Origin: a bacterium
GTDB taxonomy: Bacteria > Patescibacteriota > Minisyncoccia > Phycocordibacterales > CAIRYW01
NCBI GenBank assembly: GCA_031373235.1
Contig: JANMMK010000077.1
Coordinates: forward strand, 1 to 43,224
Reading direction: 5' to 3'
DNA length: 43,224 nucleotides
Both the position numbers and the translations under genes were made by a program. Every line of letters begins with the position of its first letter. Position 1 is the first letter of the stretch. Under the pieces are notes generated by a model. The model saw only the letters and a list, made by a program, of their open reading frames with translations. It did not search any database and had not been told where the DNA came from. Positions 7,257-43,224 of the stretch are shown piece by piece.

Positions 7257-7295
7257 AAAACTAAGTAAGAGATTACTTAATTATCATCTTGTTAC

Positions 7296-7700: not shown

Positions 7701-7723
7701 AGGTTTATTTTTAGAGTTAATAA

Positions 7724-8215: not shown

Positions 8216-8416
8216 TGTGTGTTTTGTAAGTTTAGGTTTTGATCCCTAAAAAGTAAAATCGACCTTTAATTAATAAAAGGCCGTTTCAATAGAAACTAAA
8301 AACAGTATGCTGTTTTTTGCCTCGAGAGGATGCTTTTTACGGCTTTTGAGACTTTCGTCTCCCCTTGTCTTTGGCCTTTACATATACTAGATTACTGATT
8401 TTTTGAGAGATGTCAA
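8216..8416 (-). promoter_or_regulatory. Putative rplJ promoter plus a structured leader of about 165 nt (L10-leader-like)
   Basis: On the minus strand: TTGACA (8416-8411), a 16-nt spacer, then TAATCT (8394-8389). The leader contains a GAGAC-GAAA-GTCTC hairpin (8348-8361) and a weak AAACAG-cata-CUGUUU hairpin followed by a U run. There is no ORF. Confidence 0.35.
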
Positions 8417-8424
8417 TCAGGAAA

Positions 8425-8676
8425 TTAAATCCAAGAATTACCCATTATGTTAAATTTATCTAGGTTAAAAAATAAAATTACCAAAGAAACATAAAATATT
8501 AATAGTGAAAAAATATGTCCTGATATTTTGCTTTTAAGACAAAGATACAGAAATAAATTAATAAGTAGAGGAAATACTAAGACTGGAATAAGAAGATTAT
8601 CTAAAAAACTAATTTGAAAAAACCAAGACAGAAAAGCGACTAAAAAATTTAAAAGTATGAGAAAAAATAAAATCAT
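8425..8676 (-). CDS. Small three-helix membrane protein
   Basis: 83-aa, very hydrophobic ORF. Its start overlaps the stop of the 1135-aa gene (ATGA at 8673-8676). Confidence 0.5.
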   Translation of the reverse strand: MILFFLILLNFLVAFLSWFFQISFLDNLLIPVLVFPLLINLFLYLCLKSKISGHIFSLLIFYVSLVILFFNLDKFNIMGNSWI

Positions 8677-11600: not shown

Positions 11601-12080
11601 ATAATTTGAAATATCTACTCTACTGCTGTAAAACAGACGAAAACCTTTTTCTGCTTCCCTACTATCAAAATTCTCAACATCAACTTCTGAATCAAACAAA
11701 CTTACATTACGAACACCCTTCGCACGAATATTTTTAAGAGTACTCTCATTTGATTCAAAGAAGTTAATCCACCACTTTTGATTTAGCGGATCACTCATAT
11801 CCATATACACAGGGTCATCAACACTACCCTCAACTTTCAAATCACCAAAAATGTTCAAAGAAGAACCCGATGTGAAATATATCCTTGTACCCGTGTCGAT
11901 ACTTAAAGCCTTTCCTAACACAACATCGATAGATCCATCAACTATGTAGGGACCTTGCTCTTTAGTCCATGTAGTATTCTCAGTAATCGGTGAAGTAACA
12001 TTCGTATCCGCTTTTATACCTACAGGTAAAAGAACTAAAAGTACAAAGGTAAAGAAATTAATTAAAGTTTTGTTTTTCAT
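8673..12080 (-). CDS. Giant exported protein: N-terminal parallel beta-helix, central LCAT-like alpha/beta-hydrolase (lipase/phospholipase), C-terminal Ig-like beta-sandwich repeats
   Basis: 1135 aa with a signal peptide. Beta-helix signature: ITENTTWTKEQGPYIVDGSIDV..G..L.I..GT.IYF. Lipase motifs: VPVIIIPGIMGSYLN (oxyanion region, about aa 380), AHSMGG (nucleophile Ser, about aa 503), DGDGTVP (Asp) and EHATM (His, about aa 710). Confidence 0.8.
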   Translation of the reverse strand: MKNKTLINFFTFVLLVLLPVGIKADTNVTSPITENTTWTKEQGPYIVDGSIDVVLGKALSIDTGTRIYFTSGSSLNIFGDLKVEGSVDDPVYMDMSDPLNQKWWINFFESNESTLKNIRAKGVRNVSLFDSEVDVENFDSREAEKGFRLFYSSRVDISNYIFEGESDALALYDASSASFLDGSIETSGGGSGSFGIALFDKSLLHLFNVNFKFLFTKGVGVFDSTLYMKRANFSGGTDSALEAYASTGLTSVASVDKTNIKNMSDTGVQNYNANLTVTNSKIENNNRGIDTYFYLSSTGSLVVSRSSVSGNGDGVRVYDSATNGIRKVDIKNNWWGSASGPFHIGNTVSLGDSVFGTKNFKPWLLSPENSSEKVPVIIIPGIMGSYLNKNDKKGTEVWPSAGNLLLNKDDGQLDVLLDLKNLFTKGVLKKTLFANYFADLEESLGLNGFKEKDSLFFFGYDWRQDVDNLAWKGVSSTTKTLAEYINEVRVKTGSEKVDIVAHSMGGLLVKSYLNHFGEENNNIRKFIDIATPHLGSPFAPKTLIFGDNIGSDLLGKDVVSPKKIKEISQNFPSIYALIPSKNYYDDRYTDYKHVIRDVLDIDNNQVTGELNYAGTKNLLQNTGRNSGLLESAEKLHDTLDTLDPKNYVDEVVNIVGCGTPTLGNISIRNKKENGEYEYDLAFIDGDGTVPLMSAEAISAGAVYYIKEAEHATMPSRNGVKELVGNILTNSEIGILGGVSTSTAVCGIPKGKVVSVHSPVDIHIYDREGRHSGPDKKGDIQNDIPGIAYETVEDNKFVFIPDDGEYEVKMVGTDEGTFNVRVSDVENGETTKTDYFYNLPVHGDDTKAELDLEGESVLTIVDTVGATTTVELTPVASLDQAMLLDQHTPTTTISLVGDKSLFGAYVGPVSVTLNSVDGESGLLQSEYSFDGTSWQKYTNEVVIETDGTHVFYYRSVDKVGNIEKVKQEIIGIDLNAPMFGFDADFEGRVIKVFPVDVSSTTVSTSTKIYGTKVKYQTTLYQFTDVFGKQSSIEIRFYPPVLNKRSIDIIAINGVPLLKNYGREVLNVGVDKKTGDDTSHSKSFKYGTDSISISYSVKKNQTVILYTSNGKRVKREVLTGKINKYFVINNDNKLILR

Positions 12081-12082
12081 AC

Positions 12083-13426
12083 TTACTCTCCGAATAACAT
12101 TGATTTGATTTTTCTAAATATCTTACCTGGATACGCAAGCATCGAATCCTCTTTTTTCTCTGCAACATATGTATCAATCAAAATCTGATTAGGAGCGTTC
12201 GAAGCTGTTGTGGTTGATTTCTTTTCCTCATCTTTTATACTCAGAGTTACGGGTGGTAAAATTTCTTTTTGAACAACATACTCCTGCCTCCTTCGTAGAC
12301 CTTCTTCCAAAACAGCAAGCTCCTTAGTAAGCGAAGCAAGTTCTTCAGTCATTGGAGAGAATTTTGAAATCACTATCTTGTTTGGATATAGCAATTTAAC
12401 TTCTTCGTCCTCAAAAGATTTATTAAACGCAAAAGGCACTTTAAGAGTTGTACCCTTGTCTACTATGGTATCTTGAGGAAAAGTAAAAGAAATTTTTCCA
12501 TAAAAAACCATCCACCCGTCCAGATTAACTTCTGCCGAAGTATTGTTCTTAATAGTTACAAAACCACCTTTTCCAAAAGAAACATCCTCAACAGAGACTC
12601 TTGGCTCGAAAACTTTTACCTTTGTTTTTGAAACCGCACTAGACTCCCCCATTTCGACAGTTAAAAGCACATTGTATTCTCCAGGAAAAAGATAAGTATG
12701 AGTAACATCTTTTCCTTTTTTAGAAGACCCATCGCCAAAAGACCAAAAATACTTTGCACCAATTCCTTTTGGTGCTTCTGCAATTTTTGCATTAAATGTA
12801 ATTGGACTATTTACAGAAACCACCCTTTTTCTGCCCGCATCTACCTTAAAATCAAAGTCATCTTTTATATCACTAAGTGGTGCACTTGAAGAATGCGAAG
12901 ACTCGTCAGAAAAACTACTTCCCACCCCAGACTCACTAGTTTGGGTTCCCGTAGTCTGCCCTCCCTCTTCGTCTTTTTTGTCTTCTTCCAAAACACCGCC
13001 TCCTCCACCACTTCCAACACTAACCTTTTGACTAGCGCCAAATGTTTTACCGGTGTCCCTACCTTTTATTAGTACCGAAATTGTATACACCCCTTCAGTG
13101 GTGTCACGATAGTAAAAAGTTTTCGATGCCGTATTTTTAGACATATAAGTAGTGACAGGTTTTCCAGTACTTCCTAAAAATTCGCCCGTAGCAGAAGTTG
13201 AGGAAAAGGTCACATCATTGGTCTCATCTATCTTTTCTGAAGCACCACTGTCATTTTGAGTTTGGATAGTGAGCGCTTCAGATAAAACCCCTACACCCAC
13301 AGTCTGCCCTGAGGTTGTAAACACAAGAGTTTTTATTTTAGAACTATCTGCAATAGCATTGTTTCCTAGCAAAACAAAAGTTACTAAAAAACACGAAAAC
13401 CATCTCAAAACATTTTTATAGCTCAT
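12083..13426 (-). CDS. Exported protein with an Ig-like region, Gly/acidic linker, PKD domain and lamin-tail-like (LTD) domain
   Basis: Likely start is MSYKNVLRW at 13426; the ORF-track start at 13444 is GTG and lies inside a terminator hairpin. PKD signature: FWSFGDGSSKKGKDVTHTYLFPGEYNVLLTV. LTD-like segment: FVTIKNNTSAEVNLDGWMV. It ends 2 nt before the 1135-aa gene. Confidence 0.7.
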   Translation of the reverse strand: MSYKNVLRWFSCFLVTFVLLGNNAIADSSKIKTLVFTTSGQTVGVGVLSEALTIQTQNDSGASEKIDETNDVTFSSTSATGEFLGSTGKPVTTYMSKNTASKTFYYRDTTEGVYTISVLIKGRDTGKTFGASQKVSVGSGGGGGVLEEDKKDEEGGQTTGTQTSESGVGSSFSDESSHSSSAPLSDIKDDFDFKVDAGRKRVVSVNSPITFNAKIAEAPKGIGAKYFWSFGDGSSKKGKDVTHTYLFPGEYNVLLTVEMGESSAVSKTKVKVFEPRVSVEDVSFGKGGFVTIKNNTSAEVNLDGWMVFYGKISFTFPQDTIVDKGTTLKVPFAFNKSFEDEEVKLLYPNKIVISKFSPMTEELASLTKELAVLEEGLRRRQEYVVQKEILPPVTLSIKDEEKKSTTTASNAPNQILIDTYVAEKKEDSMLAYPGKIFRKIKSMLFGE

Positions 13427-13430
13427 GTTA

Positions 13431-13462
13431 CAAAAAAAACACACGAATTAGTTCGTGTGTTT
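13431..13462 (-). terminator. Bidirectional-looking terminator hairpin
   Basis: AAACACACGAA-ttag-TTCGTGTGTTT (11-bp stem) with an A run on one side and a T run on the other. It lies between the transposase gene and the PKD gene. Confidence 0.55.
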
Positions 13463-13597
13463 GGCTTTTTTATATTCTAAATTTGTAAATATAGATGAAA
13501 ATAGTCCTCTACGCAGACTATTGTTTTCCAAACCTTTTTGTCTCCTCTTTTTCTCCATACACCAATATTATAAACTTCCTCTTTTTTTTAATATAGA

Positions 13598-13635
13598 TGT
13601 GGATAACTCATTTAGGCTAGGTTTAGCCTAGCCTA
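13598..13635 (+). repeat. Repeat R1: TGTGGATAA head plus 9-bp palindrome
   Basis: TGTGGATAActcatt-TAGGCTAGG-tttag-CCTAGCCTA. It overlaps the stop codon of the transposase gene. Confidence 0.8.
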
Positions 13636-14302
13636 AAATTTCACCAGAAAAGTTTATCCACTCTTTTATCATTAAGTTAAACTCGGCTGAATTTTTAAAA
13701 TATTCTGGAAAGTCTTCCTTACTCAAGATTAATTTCTCCACTCTCTCTTTCTCTTGGTAATCAAAAAAACTCGAAAAAGTATACCCCTCAAGAAACTTCT
13801 TCGCCTTATCCTTATCCTCAATTTTTTTCTGCTTCCAACCTTTATCAATAATTCCAATCGGATTAAGGTGAATATAGGTATATAGATACTTTAAGTACAT
13901 ATCCGTATCGACATGCTCAGCTTTAAATGTACCCTCGAACAAAGCGCCGGTTCTTTGATTTTTTTTATTAAAAAAACCAGTATAACCTGTTTGTAGTTTC
14001 TGCATAAACACTGAGATGCCTCCTGGGGTAATTTCTTTTACGAGTAAATGAAAGTGATTTGGCATAAGGCAATAAGCACCAATGGCAACAACAGGATCAC
14101 CTCTCTCGACTAAGGACTGAAAATCAAAAGACTTCGTCTTGCGGTTTCTCTTTTCTATATTGAAATGTTTTTTTGAATTTGAAAGTAACAAAGAGCTTAA
14201 AAATCTTTCATAATCATTTTGATCTAAAAACACAGTTCTCTTATCAACACCTCGATTATATATGTGATAAAATTCTCCTTCTGCAAATTTAATCTTTCGC
14301 AT
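13628..14302 (-). CDS. Y1 HUH transposase, IS200-like / REP-associated (RayT, COG1943-type)
   Basis: 224 aa. Motifs: FYHIYNRG, HUH motif CLMPNHFHLLV, and the catalytic Tyr region YTYIHLNPI. Confidence 0.8.
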   Translation of the reverse strand: MRKIKFAEGEFYHIYNRGVDKRTVFLDQNDYERFLSSLLLSNSKKHFNIEKRNRKTKSFDFQSLVERGDPVVAIGAYCLMPNHFHLLVKEITPGGISVFMQKLQTGYTGFFNKKNQRTGALFEGTFKAEHVDTDMYLKYLYTYIHLNPIGIIDKGWKQKKIEDKDKAKKFLEGYTFSSFFDYQEKERVEKLILSKEDFPEYFKNSAEFNLMIKEWINFSGEILG

Positions 14303-14347
14303 AAAAGTAATTATAATAGCGAAACAAAAAAAGACTTGCCAAAAAAA

Positions 14348-14384
14348 TGTTGATAAGTAAGATTTTGGCTAGACTAAGCCTAGC
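14348..14384 (+). repeat. Repeat R2: TGTTGATAA head plus GGCTAG...CCTAGC palindrome
   Basis: TGTTGATAAgtaagatttt-GGCTAGactaagCCTAGC, located between the transposase start and the toxin gene. Confidence 0.75.
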
Positions 14385-14405
14385 ACGAATCAAGATAAAA
14401 ACCTT

Positions 14406-14684
14406 TTAGATTCGATTTAGAACATCTTTATATACTGACTTTCTATGTTGAATCATGTATATAAATACAATGTTATCTTCAACAGAAAAAACCACCCTAT
14501 AATCTCCTACTCGAAGTTTTTTAAACCCTGAAAGCTCACTTCGAAGTGGGATACCAAAAATATGTGGATTCGTGGTTAATTTATCCTCGATCGCTTTCTT
14601 TATCTTTTTTGTAGAAAAAATATCTATACCTGGTATATCACTCGTTACTACTTTGGGATGATACTTTACTGTATAGCTTTCCAT
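14406..14684 (-). CDS. Type II toxin, RelE/ParE superfamily
   Basis: 92 aa with the motifs ...L.GFKKLRVGDYRVVF.V.D..V.I..I.HRK.VY. It overlaps the upstream antitoxin ORF by 19 nt. Confidence 0.8.
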   Translation of the reverse strand: MESYTVKYHPKVVTSDIPGIDIFSTKKIKKAIEDKLTTNPHIFGIPLRSELSGFKKLRVGDYRVVFSVEDNIVFIYMIQHRKSVYKDVLNRI

Positions 14685-14899
14685 GCTTTTTCGTGACTTA
14701 CAAAATCAGACTTTTTAGTAGTTAACCTATCTTTGACTAACATACCGAGTTTTGCATCCTCCTCTATCTCAAGAGCAATTTTCAAAAGTTCAACAGCTTT
14801 TGTTGCTTGTGGAACCCGATCCTTCTCTGCACTTATCTTTAATAGATTTTCTAAGTCTAAAGAGAGGCTTATATTTAATCTTTTTTTTGTTGTAGTCAT
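14666..14899 (-). CDS. Type II antitoxin with an N-terminal ribbon-helix-helix (CopG/RelB-like)
   Basis: 77 aa with the RHH pattern KKRLNISLSLDLENLLKISAEKDRVPQATKAVELLKIAL. It is positioned directly upstream of the toxin and overlaps it. Confidence 0.65.
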   Translation of the reverse strand: MTTTKKRLNISLSLDLENLLKISAEKDRVPQATKAVELLKIALEIEEDAKLGMLVKDRLTTKKSDFVSHEKAWKAIQ

Positions 14900-14960
14900 A
14901 ATACATAAAGTGTATCAAAAGTGTATCACTTGTCAAACAAACTGAAAAAAATGGAGAATG

Positions 14961-14998
14961 TGTTGATAAATAAGGCTTTGGCTAGGCTTAGCCTCGCC
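14961..14998 (+). repeat. Repeat R3: TGTTGATAA head plus palindrome
   Basis: TGTTGATAAataaggcttt-GGCTAggctTAGCCtcgcc. It has the same orientation as R1/R2 and lies just upstream of the TA cassette. Confidence 0.75.
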
Positions 14999-15021
14999 AA
15001 AATATAATCTTTAAAAATGCT

Positions 15022-15056
15022 TGTTAAATAAGGGTTCTGGGAGGTTCGGCCTCCCC
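15022..15056 (+). repeat. Repeat R4: degenerate head plus GC palindrome
   Basis: TGTTAAATAAGGgttct-GGGAGG-ttcgg-CCTCCC, followed by the same CAAAT tail as the other copies. Confidence 0.6.
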
Positions 15057-15126
15057 AAATCTCCCCGGAACAAAACAAAAAATTGAGGGTTCTCTAGTGA
15101 AGAGGATACTTAAGGAGAATATTTTA

Positions 15127-15159
15127 TAAAAAGAAAAACCCCGCCGTGAGGCGGGGTTT
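15127..15159 (-). terminator. Strong rho-independent terminator of the surface-protein gene
   Basis: On the minus strand: AAACCCCGCC-tcac-GGCGGGGTTT followed by TTTCTTTTT, 47 nt downstream of the stop at 15206. Confidence 0.85.
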
Positions 15160-15205
15160 CGATTACCCTAGCTAAGCTAGGACATACGATTCAGAGAGGC
15201 TAAAG

Positions 15206-17107
15206 TTAGTTCTTAACTTCAACAACTGATGTTTCGTAATTTTCTTGTGGAGCTACGACCTGAGACTTTGTAGGGTCAGACGCTGCATCCGCGAAGTTTA
15301 CAGAGTAAAGTTGTACTCGGTAGTAACCTGTTGTAGCTGAATCGAAGCTTACTGTAAGCTTGAATGTAGCTGATTGACCTTCGTCAATTCTTACATAGTT
15401 TCCAGTTCTAGAACCTCCAGAAACATGTGAAAGAGCTGAAGTTGTAGTTCCAGTTGAACTTGCAACAGCAGAGTTTCCATCAGTTTCTACAAGGAAGCTA
15501 GCTCCTCGAGGATCAGCAGTAAGAGAGTTTGTTCCGCTGAAAGCTGAAAGCTCAACGTATTGTGTCTCATCAAATGCTTCTACCTTGAATTCAACTGTGT
15601 AAGTACCTTGGTCGTCAGTCGCTGTAGTATCAAGTCCTAGAGCTTGTGCAGCTGAAGTACTTGATTTTGTTACGATGATACCAGCTGTTCGTAAGTAGTG
15701 AGTGTCTCCAGTTACAGAACCCTTAAGGTTTGTAGCTGTAAGATCATCAGCACCTTCTGCGTCGATTTCATCAACGTTTGTTGTTGTAAGGTTAGCAGCT
15801 ACTGTTACTCCTTCGTTTCCAGGAACAAGTGCCTTGAATCGAACTTTAACTTCTGCTTTTACTTTCTTACCAACTTTTACAGTAACTTCGTCATCCACAT
15901 CGAATGTAGAAGAAGCTGTTGTAAGTGTTCCTCCTGAAATTGTGTAGTCAGAAATAACTTTTCCGTCAATAACAAGTTCGTAATCATCAATCAATGCGTT
16001 AACAGTTGATGATGAAACAGTAAAGTTTACTGGGATAGACTTGATTGTGATGTCATTTTCTTCAGCTTCGAGATCGAAAGCAAGAAGAGTGTACCATTCT
16101 GAAGTCGTATCGTCGTTTAGAGAAAGAGTTGTAGAGTCTGGATTAGCAGAGTTTTCTGTAATCTTTAACTCTTCGTCTTGTCCAGCATCAACAACATCGA
16201 ATGTTACTGAATCTGAATCATCTCCTGTGTAGTTGTCAATTCCCATTTGGTCAACAGCTCGAACTCCTTCATCTGGAATGAAGATATCCCATTCTGCTGG
16301 AAGATCGTCAACTCCGTTTGATGTAGATAGCTTTAGAACCATTTCTACTCTTTCTCCTTCCTTAGCGACAGATGAAAGTCCAGAGAATCGTAGTCGGTAA
16401 GTATTAGGAGTTGTGTTTCCTTCTTCTGACCAATCAGTCTTAGAGTCAACATTCTCTGAAGCAACTTCTTTTCCGTTGATCCAAAGAGTAGCTTTCTCAA
16501 ACACTTGCCAAGGATCAGTTTCTTCTGATGTAGCACCTTGAACGTGGAAGTCAACTCTTTCAATTCGAGCATCCGCGTCTTCAACATCGAATCGAGCTCG
16601 AAGAATTTTTCCTTCTCCTCCTTCTTCTATATCAGAATCGTCTCCTGAAGAAAGATCGAAGTCTTCTAGAGAAGCTTCACCTCCGTTAAGACCAACTGTT
16701 GATGTAGTAGTTGTAGTAGTTGTGGTAGTAGTAGTAACTGAACCATTTACCTTAGCTCTTGTAACAGGGCCAAAGTATCCAGCTGCTGGAGCGATTCCGT
16801 TTGCTGCTTGGTAAGCTGCAACTGCTGCCTTAGTGATAGGTCCGAAGTATCCTGTTGCTGTTCCTGAAAAGTAGCTCTTTGAAGCTAACCAGTTTTGAAG
16901 AGCAGTAACATCAGATCCTGTAGATCCTACAGTAAGGTCTCTAGTAAATGTAACCGATACAGTTGAAGATCCAGACATAGCTGCGATCTTTGCTGTAAGG
17001 TCTGCGATCATTTTTTGTAGGTCAGCAACTGACTGTGCTCCTGCTGTAGAAACTACTGCAAGAGAAAGTGCAACTGCAAAACCTGCAACCTTTGCAAATT
17101 TTTTCAT
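15206..17107 (-). CDS. Abundant-looking cell-surface protein: signal peptide, peptidoglycan-binding domain (PG_binding_1-like), poly-Thr linker and long beta-rich region
   Basis: 633 aa. Signal peptide: MKKFAKVAGFAVALSLAVVSTAGA. PG-binding motif: GSTGSDVTALQNWL....YF.G.ATGYFGPITKAAVAAYQAANGI. Thr linker: T11-S. Codon choice is restricted, and the gene has its own strong terminator. Confidence 0.8.
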   Translation of the reverse strand: MKKFAKVAGFAVALSLAVVSTAGAQSVADLQKMIADLTAKIAAMSGSSTVSVTFTRDLTVGSTGSDVTALQNWLASKSYFSGTATGYFGPITKAAVAAYQAANGIAPAAGYFGPVTRAKVNGSVTTTTTTTTTTTSTVGLNGGEASLEDFDLSSGDDSDIEEGGEGKILRARFDVEDADARIERVDFHVQGATSEETDPWQVFEKATLWINGKEVASENVDSKTDWSEEGNTTPNTYRLRFSGLSSVAKEGERVEMVLKLSTSNGVDDLPAEWDIFIPDEGVRAVDQMGIDNYTGDDSDSVTFDVVDAGQDEELKITENSANPDSTTLSLNDDTTSEWYTLLAFDLEAEENDITIKSIPVNFTVSSSTVNALIDDYELVIDGKVISDYTISGGTLTTASSTFDVDDEVTVKVGKKVKAEVKVRFKALVPGNEGVTVAANLTTTNVDEIDAEGADDLTATNLKGSVTGDTHYLRTAGIIVTKSSTSAAQALGLDTTATDDQGTYTVEFKVEAFDETQYVELSAFSGTNSLTADPRGASFLVETDGNSAVASSTGTTTSALSHVSGGSRTGNYVRIDEGQSATFKLTVSFDSATTGYYRVQLYSVNFADAASDPTKSQVVAPQENYETSVVEVKN

Positions 17108-17574
17108 ATATTAATTATTTTTTTATTTATGCTCAACCACTTAATTTTTAAGAACTAATAATTTGTGGCGTTGCATTACTTTTAACAACTCTATATATAG
17201 AGAACATTTTTCGACTGTTCTCTAAGAGAGCTGGTTACGAATGTGAAGACTAAGATATTTCGACCTTCGCCCTGCACAATCGCCTTAATATAAAAGATTG
17301 CTCTTTTATATTTATCTATCACTAATCTTAAAAAGAAAGCTTTGAGTTTTACCTCTCTGCACTCTTGATAAGAGTAGCTGGTATGGGATTTGGGTATTCA
17401 TCTTTTACTAACCTTGGTGGGATAAAGATTTTCTGTATTATTTTTTTGTCAAAGAAACAATCATTTAGAATAGGTATTTTAGCTCTATATTCTAAACGCA
17501 ACAGGAGCTTTTTTGAAGCTTTGTGTGCGTAGGTAGAATTATAGTATAAAGCACCTCTCTAGAGCAACTGTATG

Positions 17575-17599
17575 TGTGGATAAAGCCCTTATTTGGGGC
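17575..17599 (+). repeat. Repeat R5 (short copy): TGTGGATAA head plus small GC hairpin
   Basis: TGTGGATAAa-GCCC-ttatttg-GGGC followed by AAAATC. The head and tail match R1-R4. Confidence 0.5.
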
Positions 17600-17653
17600 A
17601 AAATCTACGAGGGTAATACTAGCACATTTGAGGCAGAAAGACAAGCAAAAAGA

Positions 17654-17690
17654 AGTTGATAGGTGCTAGTTTGTAGTTGGTAGTAATTAA
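17654..17690 (+). repeat. Heptad AGTTNNN array
   Basis: AGTTGAT AGGTGCT AGTTTGT AGTTGGT AGTAATT, period 7. Confidence 0.55.
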
Positions 17691-17773
17691 TAATAAAAAT
17701 ATGAATAATGACCGAAACGGTAGAAGTTTTTGTAACCATTTTCAGGAGACACTTTTAGAGTGATACTTTGATT

Positions 17774-18550
17774 TTAAATGAAGTATTTTGACCAACGACG
17801 CTCCCCTGTCTTTTTGATTGATCCTTTGTCCAAAAGTTCTATGAGCTCCCTTTGGATTGTCTTTTCGCTACAGTCTTTTATTTTTGCTGTTATGTCTTTT
17901 ATAGTCACAGGCAATGAAGATTCTTTTATTATATTTATTATTCTATTCTTTCTATCGTCTTTTGTTAAGAAATGAAGGCCTTTGTCCTTTAACTGATATC
18001 CCGACTCTGTGTTCGACTTCTTAAAATTTTGCGAATTATTTCTAAAGGACTTCTCTCTTTCATAAAGGACATTATGTGCCATTTGTCCTTTATAATTTTC
18101 CTCCGTTTTGCTCTGCAACATTGTTTCTACTTTAAAAAAATCTTGCCCGATCTCTGGGAACAAGACACCTGACTTCCCTGACATATTTTTTATTTCCAAA
18201 ACGATATTTTCTATTTCATTCTTAAGTATTTCGGAGTTCATTGTTGATATCAAAGAAGACATTACTCCGAGGTTAATCTGCCTCTCTAAAACCATAAAAA
18301 TTGGAATTAGATTCTCTGGGACAACACCTGACTTATAAGAAGAAAAGGACTCTAGTAGACCGTGGGCTATTTTTCTTAAAGACATTCTTAATGGCTCACT
18401 CGAACTTAAAAGGTCAGAAAGAAGATATAGCGCCTCGCTTACTTTACTGACTTTTTTAAATACATAGTAGTTTGAATGCTGATTTAAAAAGACAACATCA
18501 GCGATCTTCTGTGTCCTATTATCTTGGTTTGATATGATGTCTTTTTCCAT
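17774..18550 (-). CDS. Hypothetical protein with a C-terminal DeoR-like winged HTH
   Basis: 258 aa. The C-terminal segment is VTIKDITAKIKDCSEKTIQRELIELLDKGSIKKTGERRWSKY. The N-terminal region was not recognised. Confidence 0.5.
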   Translation of the reverse strand: MEKDIISNQDNRTQKIADVVFLNQHSNYYVFKKVSKVSEALYLLSDLLSSSEPLRMSLRKIAHGLLESFSSYKSGVVPENLIPIFMVLERQINLGVMSSLISTMNSEILKNEIENIVLEIKNMSGKSGVLFPEIGQDFFKVETMLQSKTEENYKGQMAHNVLYEREKSFRNNSQNFKKSNTESGYQLKDKGLHFLTKDDRKNRIINIIKESSLPVTIKDITAKIKDCSEKTIQRELIELLDKGSIKKTGERRWSKYFI

Positions 18551-18760
18551 ATAGTTTGTCTTTTATAAGATGTAGTTGTCTGATGTGTCCATGATATAAA
18601 AGACACCTTCAAATAGCAAGTGGTGCTTCGGTAAACACCTTTTACAAAGTACAGAAAAGTTCAGCTAAATTTTTATTCCTTTCGTCGCCGGTCGCTCCTC
18701 AAAGTCTTTGTAAAAGGTGTTTCCACTTCGCACTAAAAAGAAAGAAGGAAAGTTGAGAAT

Positions 18761-18810
18761 AGTTAGATAGTTAGATAGTTAGATAGTTAGATAGTTAGAT
18801 AGTTAGATAG
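18761..18810 (+). repeat. Perfect tandem octamer (AGTTAGAT) x 6.25
   Basis: Read directly from the sequence: agttagat repeated six times and then ag. It lies about 80 nt upstream of the ftsK start. Confidence 0.95.
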
Positions 18811-21643: not shown

Positions 21644-22708
21644 ATGGTAAAGAAAAAAGAAAAAGAACCAAAAAAAACAAGCTCAGGAATTGACGATGCG
21701 ATTCGAGCAATCAAAACAAAATTTGGAGATGAATCAATTATGAAACTTGGTGACAGTCCGAAAGTTGACGTGGGTGTCATCCCTACTGGTTCACTTGGAC
21801 TCGATAGTGCTCTTGGGATTGGTGGACTTCCAAGGGGAAGAATCATCGAAATATTTGGCCCTGAGTCATCTGGTAAAACAACACTTACTCTTCATGTCAT
21901 TGCTGAAGCACAAAAAATGGGAGGTGTTTGTGCTTTTATAGATGCAGAGCACGCAATGGATCCTGAATACTCAAAAAGAATTGGGGTAAAAACCGACGAG
22001 CTTCTTATCAGTCAACCTGACAACGGAGAACAGGCGCTCGAAATTGTTGACTCACTTGTTCGAACTGGAAAGATTGATGTGATCGTTATCGACTCGGTTG
22101 CTGCACTTACCCCAAGAGACGAAATCGAGGGAGATATGGGAGCGCACCATGTTGGTAAACAAGCGCGTCTAATGGCTCAGGCGCTTCGCAAGCTAACCGC
22201 TATCGTTGCTCGAAGCAAAACTATGGTTATCTTTATTAACCAAATACGAATGCAGATTGGAGTAATGTTTGGAAATCCAGAAACAACTCCTGGAGGAAAG
22301 GCGCTCAAGTTCTATACTTCCGTCCGACTTGATATCAGAAGAATTGCTCAAATAAAGAAAGGCGAAGAAATCATGGGAGGAAGAGTTAGAGTAAAAGTTG
22401 TTAAAAACAAAGTCGGTTCCCCTTTCAAACAAACAGAATTTGACCTTATGTATAACGAAGGAATTTCTAAAGAAGGTGAAATTATGGCTCTAGGAGAGAA
22501 AATGGGTCTCCTACAGAAAGCTGGCAACTCTTACAAATACGGAGACATGGTTTTAGGTCGTGGATATGATGCAACAAGACAATTTCTTAGAGAAAATACT
22601 AAAGTGTCAGAAGAATTACTCGGCAAGATTCGTAAGTTTATGAAAGAAGGCGGATTTAATGCTATCCCTACCCCAGCTGACTTGAGTGAAGAGAAGCCGG
22701 AGGAATAG
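21644..22708 (+). CDS. recA: Recombinase RecA
   Basis: 354 aa. Motifs: [32 protein letters not shown] (Walker A), [20 protein letters not shown] and FINQIR. Confidence 0.97.
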
Positions 22709-27434: not shown

Positions 27435-28877
27435 TTAGTCTTTTCTTAGAAAAAGAGGTTTTTCTGGGGCTTTGTTTTCTTTAATAAGATTTTTTATTTT
27501 ATCTGAGGTTTCAGGAAGAAAAGGTTGCAGCTTTTCTGCCACAACAAAAAGCATTCGGACAAAATCTGAAATTAACTTCTTACCTTTTTCATAATCTGTT
27601 TTAATCACTTTAAATGGTTGCTCTGTTTGAATGAGGTTATCTATACTCGCAACATAAGCCCATAAAATATTTAAAGCACCCTGTAGATTAAAAGAATCTA
27701 CTTCTTTTTCGTAATCAAAATTAGGATACACATCTTTAAAAGAAGTTACTGGTCCAGTAAGGTTCGTCTCTGCCATCTTCATAATTCTTGAAGTAAGGTT
27801 CCCGATACCGTTCGCAAGATTCGCATTGTAACTCTCCTTTAGTTTCTCTTTTGAAACAGCAGTATCTTCGAATGGATGAAATTCCCGTAAGACAAAATAC
27901 CGAAGTGCATCTGTGCCATACTCAGCTACCAGTTCAAGTGGATCAATTGTATTACCAAGTGACTTAGACATTTTCACTCCTCCGTCACCTAAAATAAATC
28001 CATTCACAACTATTTGCTTTGTATTTTGGTATCCAGCAGCCATGAGCATTGCTTGCCACATAACACCCTGAAATCTAGTGTTATCTTTACCACAATACTG
28101 GGTAGGAGTTCCGCTATTCCAATATTTTTCAATACCCTCTTCATCATCCAGCGTAGAAAGGTAGTCCGTAAGCGCATCAAACCACACATACATAACATGC
28201 CCTCCGTCACCCGGCACCTCTATTCCCCATGGCATTTTTGATTTTAATCTTGAAATAGAAAAGTCATGAAGTCCTCGCTTAATAAACTCTCGCATTTCAT
28301 TCATTCGAGAATTCGGAATTATAAAATCTGGATTCCCATCATAAAATTTCAAAAGTCTTTCTCCAAAACCACTAAACTTAAAAAAATAATTTTCTTCCTC
28401 GATGATTTCTGGTGCTTTTCTGTGTTCCGGACAAAGTCCTTCCACCAACTCTGAATCTGTTTTTTCTTCTTCGCAACCAACACAATATTTTGTTTTATAA
28501 TTTTTTTTATATATAAAACCATTCTGTAAACATTTGTTCCAGAAGTCTTTAGCAAATGCGATATGCTTTTCGTCTGTTGTTCTAATGAAGTGTATTCCTT
28601 CACCCTCTTTAAGCACTCCAAATTTCTCTAATGTTTCTTTATATAATCGGGCATACTCATCAACATACTCCTTAACTTCTACTCCAGCCTTTTGTGCTGA
28701 CTCAAGAATCTTTTTACCATGTTCATCCGTTCCTGTATTAAAAAACACATCGAAGCCTTGGAGTTTTTTTGCACGCGCAATAGCATCAGCTCTAATTATT
28801 TCTGTGGCATGACCCAAGTGAAGTGGTGCATTCACATACGGCAATGTCGTAGTAATGTAAAAAGGTTTCTGTGACAT
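27435..28877 (-). CDS. metG: Methionyl-tRNA synthetase, short form without a C-terminal tRNA-binding domain
   Basis: 480 aa. Motifs: HLGH (HIGH motif), the Zn knuckle CVGCEEE...CPEH, and KMSKSLGN. Confidence 0.93.
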   Translation of the reverse strand: MSQKPFYITTTLPYVNAPLHLGHATEIIRADAIARAKKLQGFDVFFNTGTDEHGKKILESAQKAGVEVKEYVDEYARLYKETLEKFGVLKEGEGIHFIRTTDEKHIAFAKDFWNKCLQNGFIYKKNYKTKYCVGCEEEKTDSELVEGLCPEHRKAPEIIEEENYFFKFSGFGERLLKFYDGNPDFIIPNSRMNEMREFIKRGLHDFSISRLKSKMPWGIEVPGDGGHVMYVWFDALTDYLSTLDDEEGIEKYWNSGTPTQYCGKDNTRFQGVMWQAMLMAAGYQNTKQIVVNGFILGDGGVKMSKSLGNTIDPLELVAEYGTDALRYFVLREFHPFEDTAVSKEKLKESYNANLANGIGNLTSRIMKMAETNLTGPVTSFKDVYPNFDYEKEVDSFNLQGALNILWAYVASIDNLIQTEQPFKVIKTDYEKGKKLISDFVRMLFVVAEKLQPFLPETSDKIKNLIKENKAPEKPLFLRKD

Positions 28878-31348: not shown

Positions 31349-31438
31349 ACATATAAATCAGGACACATTGCTCAAGGGGTAACAAACAATCCACCAAAGC
31401 ATCTGTACTTCGTAAGTACGGTACACCTGAAAAAACCT

Positions 31439-32140
31439 ATGAAGAAACTCTTCTTCTTACTGCTCGTTAACATGTTCAGTTTGGCCACCTACGGCCAGCT
31501 CACCGTCACTCCAGCCACAGAAGGATACTTAATGCAGGCCGTTTCGACGGACCTCATCTGGTATTCCGAGGTAGTGTTCCCCACTCCAGAGAACAACACC
31601 TCGACACTGAGTGTTGTGTCACCAGAAGTGGACACTACGCTCCCCGTCACGATCTCCGGATCGGTATCGGGTTCAACAACCACAAGGCGAATCAACTGGC
31701 ACTTCACTGTCGAAGCGACAGGAAGTGCGAGCATAAGTATCCGCGACCGCATCGGTGGAGGCACCGCGGTTGTGGATGGAGATCTTTCTGGATGGGCAAA
31801 CCCCTCGCAAGAAATCATCTTCGCACCCTTTGCAATCGGTGGCTCATCGGGATACGCCTCGATGTGGAACATCAAAGTCACAAGTGGAGGAGTTGAAGTG
31901 CCGATCTCTGGCACTTTCACCTCGCACTTCAATGGCTCACCGGACGAAGTGACTGCGTTCTCGATCGACCCCGGGTGGAGTTATCCTCTCGACATCGAGG
32001 GATGGACAGAGACCACTGTCACCACCGGAGAGACGGACCACATCCGGTCGGTTGGAGTATACGGAGTAGTACCTGAGCCTGGCTCAGGAGCACTGCTTCT
32101 TCTCGGAGGACTGTCGGTACTCGCAAAGCGCCGGAGGTAA
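31439..32140 (+). CDS. Exported protein with a C-terminal PEP-CTERM sorting signal (GC-rich)
   Basis: 233 aa. Signal peptide: MKKLFFLLLVNMFSLATYGQ. C-terminus: VVPEP-GSGALLLLGGLSVLA-KRRR, i.e. PEP motif, TM helix and Arg cluster. A sample line is about 55% G+C. Confidence 0.75.
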   Translation: MKKLFFLLLVNMFSLATYGQLTVTPATEGYLMQAVSTDLIWYSEVVFPTPENNTSTLSVVSPEVDTTLPVTISGSVSGSTTTRRINWHFTVEATGSASISIRDRIGGGTAVVDGDLSGWANPSQEIIFAPFAIGGSSGYASMWNIKVTSGGVEVPISGTFTSHFNGSPDEVTAFSIDPGWSYPLDIEGWTETTVTTGETDHIRSVGVYGVVPEPGSGALLLLGGLSVLAKRRR

Positions 32141-32162
32141 AGAAACTGAACATAAAAACAAC

Positions 32163-32206
32163 AAACGCCATTTTGGGAAACCGGAAAGGCGTTTTGTTTT
32201 TTGTTG
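32163..32206 (+). terminator. Probable terminator
   Basis: AAACGCC, a loop of about 18 nt, GGCGTTT, then TGTTTTTTGTTGATTTTTT. Confidence 0.5.
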
Positions 32207-32239
32207 ATTTTTTAAATTATTAGTATAAGATTTTTTGAA

Positions 32240-32386
32240 ATGAAAGTACTATGCGGATCTTTGGTGGTGATCGGGGCCTGTGGAGGTTACTTCACAGGAA
32301 ATATTCCTGGAGCTCTTTTTGGCGGTGTTACTGCCATCAACTTATCCCTCCAGCTCTGGTGCCGATCCTTCACTAGAAAAAACTAA
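32240..32386 (+). CDS. Small Gly-rich membrane peptide (48 aa, below the ORF-track cutoff)
   Basis: My own translation: MKVLCGSLVVIGACGGYFTGNIPGALFGGVTAINLSLQLWCRSFTRKN*. It is followed by its own terminator. Confidence 0.4.
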   Translation: MKVLCGSLVVIGACGGYFTGNIPGALFGGVTAINLSLQLWCRSFTRKN

Positions 32387-32393
32387 TCTCTAA

Positions 32394-32419
32394 CACCACT
32401 TCCCCGTGGTGATTTTTTT
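32394..32419 (+). terminator. Rho-independent terminator
   Basis: CACCAC-ttcccc-GTGGTG-ATTTTTTT, preceded by CTCTAAC as in the 41830/42650 repeat. Confidence 0.7.
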
Positions 32420-32445
32420 ATTCTTGATGTAGAGTTAATATAAAT

Positions 32446-32643
32446 ATGATATTTGCATTTATACTCCTTGGAGGTCTTGTTGGACTTGGTATTGGTGGTC
32501 TCGTTGACTACCTATCTAGTTCAAACTATCAGACAGCACTGTCTGTGATCGGTTTGTGTCTTGGTGCCCTTACCTACTTCTACCTTGATACCAAATCAAT
32601 GGAAGAAGCTGATCTTAATCAGGACGACCACTATAGAGAATAG
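32446..32643 (+). CDS. Small Gly-zipper membrane protein
   Basis: 65 aa with two hydrophobic Gly-rich helices (LLGGLVGLGIGGLV; VIGLCLGALTYF) and an acidic tail. Confidence 0.5.
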   Translation: MIFAFILLGGLVGLGIGGLVDYLSSSNYQTALSVIGLCLGALTYFYLDTKSMEEADLNQDDHYRE

Positions 32644-32670: not shown

Positions 32671-32745
32671 AATCTCTCACTTTAGCTTCCTCGGTTAGGA
32701 AATACAAAAGATCACTTTTGTATCTCACTCACTCTACGTCGCTAA

Positions 32746-32772
32746 TAAAAAAATCGCAGGAATTTATCCTGC
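32746..32772 (-). terminator. Rho-independent terminator of the 122-aa gene
   Basis: On the minus strand: GCAGGA-taaat-TCCTGC followed by GATTTTTTT. Confidence 0.6.
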
Positions 32773-32789
32773 GCGCTAGTCATGTGAAC

Positions 32790-33158
32790 TTACGTTCCAA
32801 GTGGCGAGACCCTGTGGGCCACGTGAATCCGCCCAACAGCTTTACCCTCAACCCAGACATCCAGAATGCGCCAATGATCCTTTCCATCAACAACGCGCGC
32901 TCCAAGACCTTCAAGTTCCTTGGTGACCGCATCTGTCATCGGCTTTTCGATTCGAATCGGTAAGTGGTCTGATTCTTTGGAACCAAGGTTTGCTGCACGT
33001 TTGATCTTATAAACATGCCCCAGGATTTCGGCCACAACATAGCCCTCTCCCGAAGACTTCTTGATTGCACCGAGGTGTTTTTGAAGCCACAGAAAGAATT
33101 TTTCTGGGTCAGTTGAGATGAGGTTGCCTGCGTAATCGTAGAAGAATATTGTAAGCAT
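32790..33158 (-). CDS. Hypothetical cytoplasmic protein (GC-rich orphan)
   Basis: 122-aa ORF. A sample line is about 53% G+C. No motif recognised. Confidence 0.45.
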   Translation of the reverse strand: MLTIFFYDYAGNLISTDPEKFFLWLQKHLGAIKKSSGEGYVVAEILGHVYKIKRAANLGSKESDHLPIRIEKPMTDAVTKELEGLGARVVDGKDHWRILDVWVEGKAVGRIHVAHRVSPLGT

Positions 33159-33294
33159 TTAATGTTCTGTATCCAAAAGTTCGTCTTGCCAAAGGATTAC
33201 TATTTTGAATGGTTTTTGTTGCGAAGCAAGTTAGAGGTTGTTTTGGCAACTTGTTTTCAAATGTATTTATACCTCAAAAGAAATCCTCGTCAAT

Positions 33295-41487: not shown

Positions 41488-41835
41488 ATGCCTCATATCT
41501 CTCTCGAGTTCCTTGATACTAATGGGAACCAACACCCTTACGGAAATCTTATTCTACTTGCAAAAGACCTCATTTCTGCAGTAGAAGGAATAACTGAACT
41601 TAACATCGACAAAGACGCTGTGTCCTGTTCTCAAATCCAATCAACTTCACTCACCCCAACAAATAGGATAATTGCAAAAGTGTCCTGTCTATTGGCAAAA
41701 AAAGGTCGTGATGACTCAACCGTCGCTAAAGTTGCTAAAGTCGTAGCCGAAACGATAAAGAAGTACTTTCCAAAGTTTACTATTGAAGTGGTTGTTGAAC
41801 CCTTAGTTCCCATGTCCTACATTATCACTCTCTAA
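41488..41835 (+). CDS. Hypothetical protein (possible tautomerase-superfamily member, Pro-1)
   Basis: 115 aa that begins MPHISLEF. The size and the N-terminal Pro are reminiscent of MIF/tautomerase folds, which is a weak inference only. Confidence 0.35.
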   Translation: MPHISLEFLDTNGNQHPYGNLILLAKDLISAVEGITELNIDKDAVSCSQIQSTSLTPTNRIIAKVSCLLAKKGRDDSTVAKVAKVVAETIKKYFPKFTIEVVVEPLVPMSYIITL

Positions 41836-41891
41836 CGCCAGGCTTGTCCTCGGCGATTTTTATTTACCTACCAATATTGACTTTTTATATA
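41830..41891 (+). repeat. Terminator-promoter cassette, copy A
   Basis: The 32-mer CTCTAACGCCAGGCTTGTCCTCGGCGATTTTT is a bulged 7-bp hairpin plus T run. After a variable spacer comes the 16-mer ATTGACTTTTTATATA, which holds the -35 box TTGACT. A -10 box TATAAA follows 16 nt later. Confidence 0.8.
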
Positions 41892-41913
41892 GATATGATA
41901 TAAATTTTTTTGA

Positions 41914-42639
41914 ATGAACACGTCACACAACCAAATGTGGGTAACGAGTGGAACTCGTTTACCTTTAACCGCAGTGAGGAATGCTGCATCACTACTAACA
42001 ATCCTGCTCTTCGTACTCACAACGATAAGCTACGGACAATACACCGGCTTCTCCTACTCCACCGGCCCCGACCGTTGGAGCTATATCGCTCAGGGTTCAG
42101 GACTAGAGCTGCCAGAAAACGGCACTCAATTCTTTGCGCCCTATACGCGATACCCGGCCAGCCAAAACTACTCAAACAGCCTGGAGTTGAGCATCTACAC
42201 CCCCGCCGGACCAATCATCCCACCATTTCAGTTTCCCACTCCCGACAGTGACTGGAACATCAACCTCCATGCACCAAACAATGGGTTACTTGAAGAAGGG
42301 GTCTTCATCGCAACGAGATACCCATTTAACAGCCCTGATGTTATGGGGTTCACATGGTATGGAAACGGAAGAGGGCTAAACATCTCCACATCTTGGGTTG
42401 AGATATTGGAAGTCGAATACATCGGTGTTGGAGGACCACCAAGCAAACTAGCCTTTGACTTCGTGCAGTTTGAGGAAATCTCCCCTGCACAAAACCCAAC
42501 ACTTGAAACATCAAGATGGTCATTTGGCTCCTACCGGTACAACTCGAGCGTACCACTGAATGTTGTGCCGGAACCAAGCACCTCCATACTTGGGATGCTG
42601 GGAATGCTCCTTATAGCAAGACGAAAACGTCAAAGCTAA
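41914..42639 (+). CDS. Exported protein with a C-terminal PEP-CTERM sorting signal (GC-rich)
   Basis: 241 aa. Signal peptide: ...AASLLTILLFVLTTISYGQ. C-terminus: VVPEP-STSILGMLGMLLIA-RRKRQS. A sample line is about 58% G+C. Confidence 0.75.
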   Translation: MNTSHNQMWVTSGTRLPLTAVRNAASLLTILLFVLTTISYGQYTGFSYSTGPDRWSYIAQGSGLELPENGTQFFAPYTRYPASQNYSNSLELSIYTPAGPIIPPFQFPTPDSDWNINLHAPNNGLLEEGVFIATRYPFNSPDVMGFTWYGNGRGLNISTSWVEILEVEYIGVGGPPSKLAFDFVQFEEISPAQNPTLETSRWSFGSYRYNSSVPLNVVPEPSTSILGMLGMLLIARRKRQS

Positions 42640-42649
42640 TAACTACCAA

Positions 42650-42711
42650 CTCTAACGCCAGGCTTGTCCTCGGCGATTTTTTATATTTAAGCACTATTGA
42701 CTTTTTATATA
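42650..42711 (+). repeat. Terminator-promoter cassette, copy B
   Basis: The 32-mer and 16-mer are identical to copy A and occur in the same order. The -10 box TAATAT lies 16 nt after TTGACT. Confidence 0.8.
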
Positions 42712-42782
42712 TTTATGTTAATATAGTAAAAAATACCCTCAGAAATCACAGAAACTCAACCAAGTCAAAAACTACCGAAATC

Positions 42783-43224
42783 ATGAAAACAATCATCTCG
42801 CTCTTTACAGCGATCATCATCACCGCAGTCCTTTCGGGCTGCACAGGATCAGTCGACGGACGCATCACTGCATCCATCGGCTCAAACCGCCAAGGCAACC
42901 ACGGAGGTGGACCAGTTTACAACGGGCTCCCCACCCCAACCATCCAGAGTCTCCGCTCCAGTGGCAGAGACGCCTCAGGAGTTGCCCGTTGGGCAATGGA
43001 GAACGGATATCGGCTCCAGGAGTCGAACGTTGTCAGGGAAGCCCGTCACTGTGGACCCTCTTGCGCGGTAACGCGAAAGAGTGTCCTTCAGAGGACTTGG
43101 GTTCGAACGACCCCTGTCCCTATGGCAACGCCCCCGCAATATCTTCGGGCGCCAAGTCCGGCGGACCAACTCTACCAGAGGCCAATCGGGGTAGACTGCT
43201 ATAGTCCGATCTACCCGCCACAGT
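42783..43224 (+). CDS. Putative lipoprotein, 3'-truncated by the window end (GC-rich)
   Basis: My own translation is open from the ATG at 42783 to the window end: MKTIISLFTAIIITAVLSGC|TGSVDG..., with lipobox LSGC. It is absent from the ORF track because no stop codon is reached. Confidence 0.55.
   Translation, partial: MKTIISLFTAIIITAVLSGCTGSVDGRITASIGSNRQGNHGGGPVYNGLPTPTIQSLRSSGRDASGVARWAMENGYRLQESNVVREARHCGPSCAVTRKSVLQRTWVRTTPVPMATPPQYLRAPSPADQLYQRPIGVDCYSPIYPPQ

Follow-up and report, generated by a model that had tools for sequence, protein, structure and literature searches.

Layout of the locus

We analysed a window of 43,224 nucleotides (nt), which is the entire contig JANMMK010000077.1 (C74) of genome assembly GCA_031373235.1, from an uncultured bacterium that gene content and relatives place in the candidate phyla radiation (CPR, Patescibacteria); the assembly comprises 758 kb in 111 contigs, has a GC content of 37.6% and is 91% complete. 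Our subject is a short intergenic pair of sequence blocks, one of terminator type (block T) and one of promoter type (block P), which is found twice near the 3' end of the window; a block T, a spacer and a block P together are called a terminator-promoter (T-P) copy here. The order at the locus is hyp115 (an orphan open reading frame, ORF), T-P copy A, a PEP-CTERM gene, T-P copy B, a lipoprotein gene, a terminator and a rhodanese gene, with the 3' end of the window falling inside the lipoprotein gene (Table 1).

The GC content at third codon positions (GC3) is 0.25-0.33 in housekeeping genes, 0.53 in the PEP-CTERM gene and 0.61 in the lipoprotein gene; as the original prediction stated, copy A follows a gene of native-looking composition, hyp115, and copy B follows the GC-rich PEP-CTERM gene. 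It had further been proposed that each copy drives a different GC-rich gene: each does precede a GC-elevated gene for an exported protein, and the two genes are not paralogous, while the driving itself is putative. The PEP-CTERM tag was the sole Pfam or NCBIfam match at the locus, and no Rfam family matched within it. The leader of the lipoprotein gene is ~52 nt long and has no Shine-Dalgarno sequence. Taken together, the arrangement suggests that hyp115, the PEP-CTERM gene and the lipoprotein gene may be three insulated single-gene transcription units.

Table 1. Coordinates of the locus, of a possible distant module and of strongly folded genes; positions refer to the window unless another contig is named.
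Feature	Position	Strand	Description
hyp115	41488-41835	+	115-aa orphan ORF, GC3 0.36, no Pfam/NCBIfam match
Copy A, block T	41830-41861	+	CTCTAAC, hairpin 41836-41855, A+TTTTT; intrinsic-terminator type
Copy A, spacer	41862-41875	+	14 nt, ATTTACCTACCAAT; unrelated to copy B spacer
Copy A, promoter (putative)	41876-41905	+	-35 TTGACT 41877-41882, 16-nt spacer, extended -10 TGaTATAAA 41896-41904
PEP-CTERM gene	41914-42639	+	241 aa from ATG 41914; PF07589 and TIGR02595
Copy B, block T	42650-42681	+	same 32-mer; hairpin 42656-42675, A+T6
Copy B, spacer	42682-42695	+	14 nt, TATATTTAAGCACT
Copy B, promoter (putative)	42696-42724	+	-35 TTGACT 42697-42702, 16-nt spacer, extended -10 TGtTAATAT 42716-42724
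Lipoprotein gene	42783-43223	+	147 of ~200-207 codons before the contig end; lipobox LSGC
Possible distant third T-P module	32384-32445	+	TCTCTAAC, 6-bp hairpin, T7, TTGATG...TAATAT
Strongly folded GC-rich genes for exported proteins	31350-32205, 4636-5721, 42783-43223; C84 5408-5896; C46 10215-10691		z -3.5 to -9.6

The duplicated blocks

Block T is a 32-mer (CTCTAACGCCAGGCTTGTCCTCGGCGATTTTT) without a single mismatch between its two copies, and block P is a 16-mer (ATTGACTTTTTATATA; 41876-41891 and 42696-42711) that is likewise identical in both. The blocks follow each other in the same order in both copies, as had been predicted; the two copies are on the + strand, and T and P are exactly 14 nt apart in each. 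In 100 shuffles neither the 32-mer pair nor the 16-mer pair was ever matched. The spacers do differ between the copies, as also noted before, with 5 of 14 positions in common. All nine differences among the 62 aligned positions are found inside the spacer, for which the probability by chance is ~1e-7; the conservation is therefore a mosaic and not uniform.

The hairpin of block T (CGCCAGG-CTTGT-CC(T)CGGCG) consists of a 7-bp stem with one bulge and a 5-nt loop, has a folding energy of -8.7 kcal/mol and is followed by A and T5-6, with no T-run on the opposite strand. It has the two marks of an intrinsic terminator, a GC-rich stem-loop and a U-tract on the transcribed strand; the stop codon of hyp115, TAA, lies within block T of copy A. 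Block P contains a perfect -35 element from which a -10 element is separated by a distance within the 16-18 nt of sigma-70-type promoters (TTGACT-16-TGaTATAAA in copy A, TTGACT-16-TGtTAATAT in copy B). Matches to the sigma-70 consensus are equally frequent in the region and in shuffles, and the promoter reading is compatible with the data, not proven by them. As types, then, block T is a predicted terminator element and block P a predicted promoter element.

Comparison of strains

Three strains in all could be compared: that of the window; a sister strain, called REL here (JANPAC010000041.1, 75.6 kb, of GCA_031429715.1), which is 95.5% identical over 10 kb; and a third strain (L012, from ERR14949457). 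Of the two other strains, REL is the one in which copy A is seen. The order in REL is GlyRS, a gene for a 637-aa protein, RecO, IleRS, hyp115, T-P, PEP-CTERM, T-P, lipoprotein (207 aa), a strong terminator and a convergent rhodanese gene, and Logan contigs from three runs have the same layout; one of these ends inside the 32-mer because a graph with k=31 must stop at an exact repeat. Among the three strains there is no empty site and no presence/absence difference of the kind that the original prediction had envisaged for its cargo genes; both genes are present in the same order in every strain seen. The comparison thus shows a genuine duplication that is restricted to this locus and predates the divergence of the strains.

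Block T of copy B is identical in all three strains. In REL, block T of copy A (CTCTAAACGCCAGGTTTATCCTCGGCG) has one extra A just 5' of the stem and two changes in the loop, with the stem intact (-9.8 kcal/mol); in this small sample, copy A of the window compared with that of REL, structure is kept over sequence, as is expected of a terminator. The orthologous spacers are identical (copy A in REL, copy B in all three strains), and the difference between the A and B spacers therefore predates the strains. Block P of copy B reads ATTGACTTTTATAATT in both REL and L012, and the window alone has copy A's version; the letter-perfect 16-mer is therefore a feature of one strain, and the identity of the promoter blocks that was originally predicted holds in the window strain and is peculiar to it.

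In the adjoining 3' segment of the PEP-CTERM gene, however, the window is 98.8% identical to L012 and 94.5% to REL. The simplest reading of this pattern is a short conversion tract by which copy A would have overwritten copy B in the lineage of the window; because the region is a mosaic, the polarity is suggestive, not proven. The three differences of REL at the copy A hairpin all lie within 12 nt, inside ~200 nt that are otherwise almost identical, and such clustering looks like conversion or a multi-base event.

A different pattern begins downstream of copy B. The strains are 94-99% identical up to this copy; from ~11 nt after its -10 element the identity drops, within ~30 nt, to 70-76%, where it stays through the leader and the lipoprotein gene, and it recovers at the lipoprotein terminator, the stem of which has compensatory changes. 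An allele boundary is thus located at copy B. The alleles compared are window 42730-43224, L009 9950-10680 and L012 430-1110; the protein encoded in the window is 68-75% identical to those of the other strains (P0005 and P0006), with a synonymous divergence (dS) of 0.70-0.90, a ratio of nonsynonymous to synonymous divergence (dN/dS) of ~0.25, in-frame insertions and deletions only, and conserved blocks. All three alleles keep a GC content of 0.56-0.59 and a GC3 of 0.54-0.61. The hypervariable lipoprotein gene probably explains why the window's contig ends where it does. Alignment searches of metagenome and viral contigs with the lipoprotein gave nothing, and its AlphaFold model, with a predicted local distance difference test (pLDDT) score of 34.8, was too poor for a fold search.

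Genes next to the blocks

The PEP-CTERM gene of the locus has a dS between strains of 0.05-0.14 and a dN/dS of 0.11-0.12; the flanking housekeeping genes have a dS of 0.04-0.20. Its true start may be GTG 41974, since homologues are ~20 aa shorter at the N-terminus. In REL the gene (L009 9133-9860) carries a 1-nt insertion with a frameshift, which is present in two assemblies (the second is L040), and the remainder has a dN/dS of ~0.1. The protein has four homologues at 37-42% identity, and all five members of the family are encoded in AT-rich, CPR-like contigs (locus GC 0.36-0.40 in the three measured); the GC content of the gene is well above background in two of the members computed and only slightly raised in a third. 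An alignment search of viral contigs with the PEP-CTERM protein revealed no relative, and the AlphaFold model (pLDDT 51.5) was again too poor for a fold search. As a side observation, the PEP-CTERM homologues in two other CPR lineages (L013 ~940-1000; L047 ~1700-1760) have a conserved long stem-loop in the leader, TGGTTGCA...TGCAACCA.

The second PEP-CTERM gene of the window (31439-32140) is a diverged allele with a dS of 0.70 and a dN/dS of 0.09 and has diverged most strongly over the signal peptide; between strains, the promoter and the greater part of the leader are conserved. The two PEP-CTERM proteins of the window have no similarity beyond the tag. Nor do the PEP-CTERM protein and the lipoprotein of the locus resemble each other (best BLASTP E 0.11 over 24 residues), and a tandem gene duplication that left paralogues behind was rejected on this ground. 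For hyp115 no homologue was found in 40 relatives; compared with the REL orthologue it has 9 aa differences and almost no synonymous change (dN/dS 2.8), and it may have arisen recently or not be a genuine gene.

The original prediction saw foreign cargo in the GC-rich genes of the locus. What we find does not point to a recent GC-rich donor: the composition is atypical, but the relatives of the PEP-CTERM gene are in AT-rich contigs, both genes are under purifying selection, and the raised GC content of the lipoprotein gene has been kept over a dS of 0.7-0.9. Judged from their sequences, the PEP-CTERM and lipoprotein genes look like long-resident accessory genes under purifying selection and not like fresh imports.

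Folding of the mRNA sets several of the GC-rich genes apart. Compared with dinucleotide shuffles, the full transcripts had z values of -9.6 (PEP-CTERM gene at 31.4 kb), -6.4 (lipoprotein gene, REL allele), -2.7 (PEP-CTERM gene of the locus) and -0.4 (native gene). Over the first 600 nt, the mean z was -2.0 for 16 GC-rich and -0.6 for 12 native coding sequences (one-sided Mann-Whitney p = 0.024), and five GC-rich genes but none of the native genes reached z <= -3.5. The excess folding of the GC-rich genes remains when they are compared with synonymous-codon shuffles. We regard the persistently high GC content and strong mRNA folding of several genes as a signal separate from the duplication of the module.

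Distribution of the blocks

Neither block has a further copy in the 758-kb genome; for the 32-mer there is no third site even with up to 4 mismatches. A DNA search of the 40 relatives found block T in none of them and returned only short matches to the generic part of the promoter, and scans for the exact hairpin in metagenome, genome and viral contig collections gave no match. The many dispersed copies that mark the promoter-early stem-loop (PeSL) cassettes of phages are not seen here, where there are two copies at one locus. The originally predicted reusable slot is not borne out by this distribution. Two observations had been named that together would speak against it, blocks limited to one locus and downstream genes that are diverged paralogues; the former is what we find, the latter is not.

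The genome has ~390 terminator-like sites, ~10 of which are followed within 60 nt by co-directional -35 and -10 elements; three of these ~10 are in the two GC-rich islets of the window, and the remaining co-directional modules of the genome have sequences unrelated to copies A and B. The motif CTCTAAC at the start of block T is not enriched genome-wide (64 occurrences observed, ~95 expected). It stands directly 5' of a hairpin with a T-run at 3 of the 64 sites, namely in copies A and B and at 32388-32418 (TCTCTAAC, a 6-bp hairpin and T7). The module to which this last site belongs (32384-32445) is placed between two small ORFs and is 99-100% conserved in the sister strain. Its similarity to copy A, 68% over 73 nt with an E value of 0.007, ties with ordinary matches in AT-rich background; the related terminator that had been predicted near 32240-32386 is therefore present with its hairpin and T7, but a relationship of the whole module to copy A does not stand out. 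Modules M1 (32163-32245) and M2 (32384-32450) were also considered as one family with copies A and B, and were dropped as inseparable from the AT-rich background.

A search of the 91%-complete genome for a tyrosine recombinase (PF00589, Phage_integrase family including XerC/D) gave no match, and the same search matched 14 of 14 control genomes; the predicted absence of a visible integrase is thus upheld. An exosortase was likewise not detected in this genome, despite the two PEP-CTERM proteins. The blocks are confined to one locus and are not part of a dispersed or enzyme-driven cassette system.

Exchange of transcribed units elsewhere

At 32760-33259 (- strand) the window has a GC-rich ORF of 122 aa, and REL has an unrelated ORF of 107 aa with weak similarity to the glyoxalase family. 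The strains are identical through TTGACG-16-TATAAATAC and then unrelated, and identity resumes at the terminator, with the 5 outer bp of its stem (CGCAG/CTGCG) and its T-run. A transcribed unit has here been swapped between a fixed promoter and a fixed terminator. Gene exchange such as the original prediction had imagined is therefore seen, though elsewhere in the window and not involving the repeated blocks. Exact-protein look-ups for a third strain at this 32.8-kb slot, and for the unit on contig C45 described below, brought nothing new. The adjoining stretch (32680-32749) is a member of a ~70-nt dispersed repeat family with further members on contigs C51, C69, C111 and C13; a second, GC-rich dispersed family (AAGCCGGAGCGCGACGGCGCGAGG...) is found on at least 8 contigs, and a look-alike lies upstream of a GC-rich ORF in relative G005.

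The genomic setting of the duplicated blocks is also variable. The order GlyRS-637aa-RecO-IleRS-[gap]-rhodanese-DoxX-ArgRS-Tmk-SHMT is syntenic in nine relatives (L030-L038), in which the gap between IleRS and rhodanese measures 257-2351 bp. Six relatives (five of one genus, and G002) have in this gap a gene for a membrane protein of ~280-360 aa, of native composition and on the other strand. In G007 the gap holds a 110-aa GC-rich ORF with a signal peptide (GC3 0.62), and in G005 a pilin-like gene and a 115-aa GC-rich lipoprotein-like ORF (GC3 0.72), which has the same position and orientation as the window's lipoprotein gene. These GC-rich ORFs, from two other genera, each have a putative extended -10 promoter and terminator of their own and show no detectable homology to the window's lipoprotein. 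A cassette-like context, as originally proposed, is thus apparent in the gap that varies across the family and in the replacement of a nearby unit between conserved promoter and terminator, but not at the repeated blocks themselves.

A parallel to the locus is found in the first part of contig C45 (1-1100; L048), where the order is P-orf(182 aa)-T-P-orf(71 aa)-T. No homology links the two ORFs, and the repeats, a terminator-like one of 40 nt (97.5% identical) and a promoter of ~30 nt (TTGACTACGCTATATATATATTGTA), are unrelated to the blocks of the window. At one end of contig C105 (L049, the contig start) the C45 promoter and its upstream context are joined to a different downstream unit; from the sequences, the difference between C45 and C105 may be a strain-level insertion or deletion bounded by promoter copies.

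Two further differences between the window and REL were noted. Left of FtsK the two are not collinear (window 1-18782; REL, L044 1-5388): in the window this part encodes a peptidoglycan-binding protein and contains a Y1 transposase-like gene with its hairpin repeats, and in REL it contains GroEL/GroES gene fragments and other genes. In the gene for cysteinyl-tRNA synthetase, ~220 nt of the C-terminal part (27523-27746) do not align with REL, and the rest is ~97% identical.

Origin of the duplicated module

We suggest that the locus probably reflects a local, one-time duplication of a short stop-and-restart module, the copies of which have been kept alike by constraint and by short-tract conversion. 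The module would consist of a Rho-independent terminator hairpin followed 14 nt later by a sigma-70-type promoter with an extended -10 element, and its role would be to insulate and restart transcription. Its single duplication here would predate the divergence of the three strains sampled and would most likely date from the arrival of the PEP-CTERM gene between hyp115 and the lipoprotein gene. The copies would since have stayed alike through constraint, acting on the stem and the -35 element, and through occasional gene conversion over short tracts; that they are letter-perfect in the window strain is, we infer from the strain comparison, because of such conversion. Recombination that replaces the gene downstream could then use the conserved module as a stretch of homology.

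Several points weigh against this account. Blocks T and P are perfect at 32 of 32 and 16 of 16 positions, yet the 14-nt spacer between them is essentially unrelated (p ~1e-7); a simple duplication accounts for this only if, in addition, the spacer was replaced on its own or conversion acted in two distinct tracts. The direction of conversion is read from three strains, in a region that is visibly a recombining mosaic, which leaves its polarity insecure. In the other strains the similarity of the P blocks shrinks to ~10 nt of a near-consensus -35 element; the ancestral similarity may have been little more than ATTGACTTTT, and the promoter may have been outside the original duplication. The duplicated blocks of contig C45, finally, hint at a recurrent process and not a one-off event.

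These points bear on the alternative that we rank second, a shuffling of the PeSL type, in which recombination of the RecA type between modules would insert and excise promoter-gene-terminator units whose ends are standardised. After Campbell-fashion integration of a mini-circle, a T-spacer-P would stand on either side and the two junction spacers would differ, and the unrelated spacers between identical T and P blocks are directly explained by such a route. In its favour, a minimal substrate for recombination has about the length of the 32-nt block, and the window contains a gene for RecA (21644-22708; its orthologue matches Pfam RecA_N). The swap of unrelated genes at 32760-33259, exactly between a conserved -10 element and a conserved terminator base, points the same way, as do the lipoprotein allele, which is likewise bounded by control elements, and the C45 array with its own duplicated P and T and the reappearance of its promoter on C105 before a different unit; the mechanism itself is documented for T4-type phages (PMC2839356). 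Shuffling does not, however, predict the equal length of the two spacers; other GC-rich genes have modules of unrelated sequence, the two copies of this locus have no counterpart elsewhere, and all three strains have both genes in the same order. Because no empty site, circle or further copy was found, local duplication is ranked over active shuffling, which we consider possible but rather unlikely.

Other explanations of a mobile or artefactual nature are less probable still. That the hairpins bound a passenger of the type of insertion sequences IS200/IS605 or of repetitive extragenic palindromic (REP) elements, which the Y1 transposase-like gene (13628-14302) would mobilise in trans, appears improbable to us. 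Two directly oriented imperfect hairpins with a bulged base do flank one gene, and a Y1_Tnp-domain protein with hairpin repeats of its own (13.6-15.1 kb) is encoded 28 kb away; a REP-like hairpin next to it (14979-14997) has AGGCTTnnCCTCG in common with block T (41836-41855) and agrees with it at 15 of 21 positions, perhaps by chance. The repeats associated with the Y1 gene, though, differ from block T in their head (TGTTGATAA), their tail and the polarity of the A/T-run; block T has no other copy, no strain has an empty site, and the T-run and the downstream -35 element give the hairpin an ordinary reading as a terminator. We see very little room for an integron-like cassette array with block T as attC. 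Block T begins right after a stop codon, and CTCTAAC agrees at 6 of 7 positions with RYYYAAC, which we take to be the inverse core consensus. The lack of a tyrosine recombinase noted above nevertheless speaks against it, as does the structure: only the 20-nt hairpin folds, without an R'/L' partner arm and without a downstream GTTRRRY, compared with attC arms of 57-141 nt, and each gene has its own putative -35 and -10 elements instead of being promoterless and expressed from a common Pc. The attC reading was rejected for want of an integrase and of paired attC arms and in view of the per-gene promoters. An artefact at the contig end, whether a collapsed or mis-joined repeat or GC-rich DNA of another organism, might be suspected of a locus that forms the last 1.4 kb of a contig in a metagenome-assembled genome and has GC-rich genes in a genome of 37.6% GC. 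Both copies are found in the same order on the 75.6-kb contig of the other assembly, where they are distinguishable, the independent Logan contigs of three runs agree with this, and the contig end is probably accounted for by the hypervariable lipoprotein gene; misassembly was rejected, and we give an artefact hardly any credence.

Relation to known systems

The closest analogue of the locus is the PeSL cassette, described from the hyperplastic regions of the T4-type phages RB49 and phi1 (Arbiol et al. 2010, PMC2839356). A PeSL module is at most 100 nt long and combines a strong sigma-70-type promoter with a terminator stem-loop; there are ~50 per phage genome, repeated intergenically before orphan or variable genes, and recombination between copies has been proposed to move promoter-gene-terminator units, a mobility with an experimentally supported precedent in T4-type phages (PMC2839356). 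The window resembles this in having a terminator and a promoter in a short intergenic module before lineage-restricted genes, and in one subclass of PeSLs, too, the stem-loop lies upstream of the -35 element. It differs in being a cellular (CPR) chromosome and not a phage, in having two copies at one locus and no Shine-Dalgarno part, and in showing no insertion or deletion difference in three strains; its elements, moreover, are predicted ones.

Likenesses to other systems are more partial. With integron cassettes the locus shares an array of small single genes on one strand, with a short imperfect palindrome after each; here, however, the palindrome is a 20-nt terminator hairpin, no integrase was found in the genome and the units carry promoters of their own. 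Flexible or 'replacement' genomic islets between core genes are exchanged by homologous recombination in naturally transformable bacteria. The variable gap between IleRS and rhodanese, the diverged or unrelated alleles between near-identical flanks and the lack of a dedicated recombinase are all reminiscent of such islets, whereas in the window the 'arms' can be no longer than a promoter and a terminator, what is exchanged is one transcribed region and an arm is duplicated. Short duplicated regulatory sequences are also known to evolve concertedly by gene conversion; here, too, the two paralogous copies of one strain resemble each other more than orthologous copies from different strains do, with the difference that the tracts are very short (16-32 nt) and that the polarity comes from three strains only.

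Implications

The repeat taken alone is a small regulatory duplication, and its value lies in its context. In a streamlined genome of 0.76 Mb with no detectable integrase, accessory genes for exported proteins are arranged as self-contained promoter-gene-terminator units, and the comparison of strains shows that control sequences can remain in place when the transcribed part between them is replaced. We speculate, and at present think it doubtful, that CPR bacteria have an integrase-free cassette economy, a cellular counterpart of the hyperplastic regions of phages, in which the duplicated T-P pair would be both scar and hinge of one stacking event. Tentatively, the GC-rich and often tightly folded units for exported proteins might then be exchanged, stacked and replaced by RecA-type recombination, with promoter and terminator as the homology arms. 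If the modules are indeed recombination handles, this would explain how surface proteins diversify in ultra-small episymbiotic bacteria without mobile-element machinery, and it would extend the PeSL concept from phages to cellular genomes.

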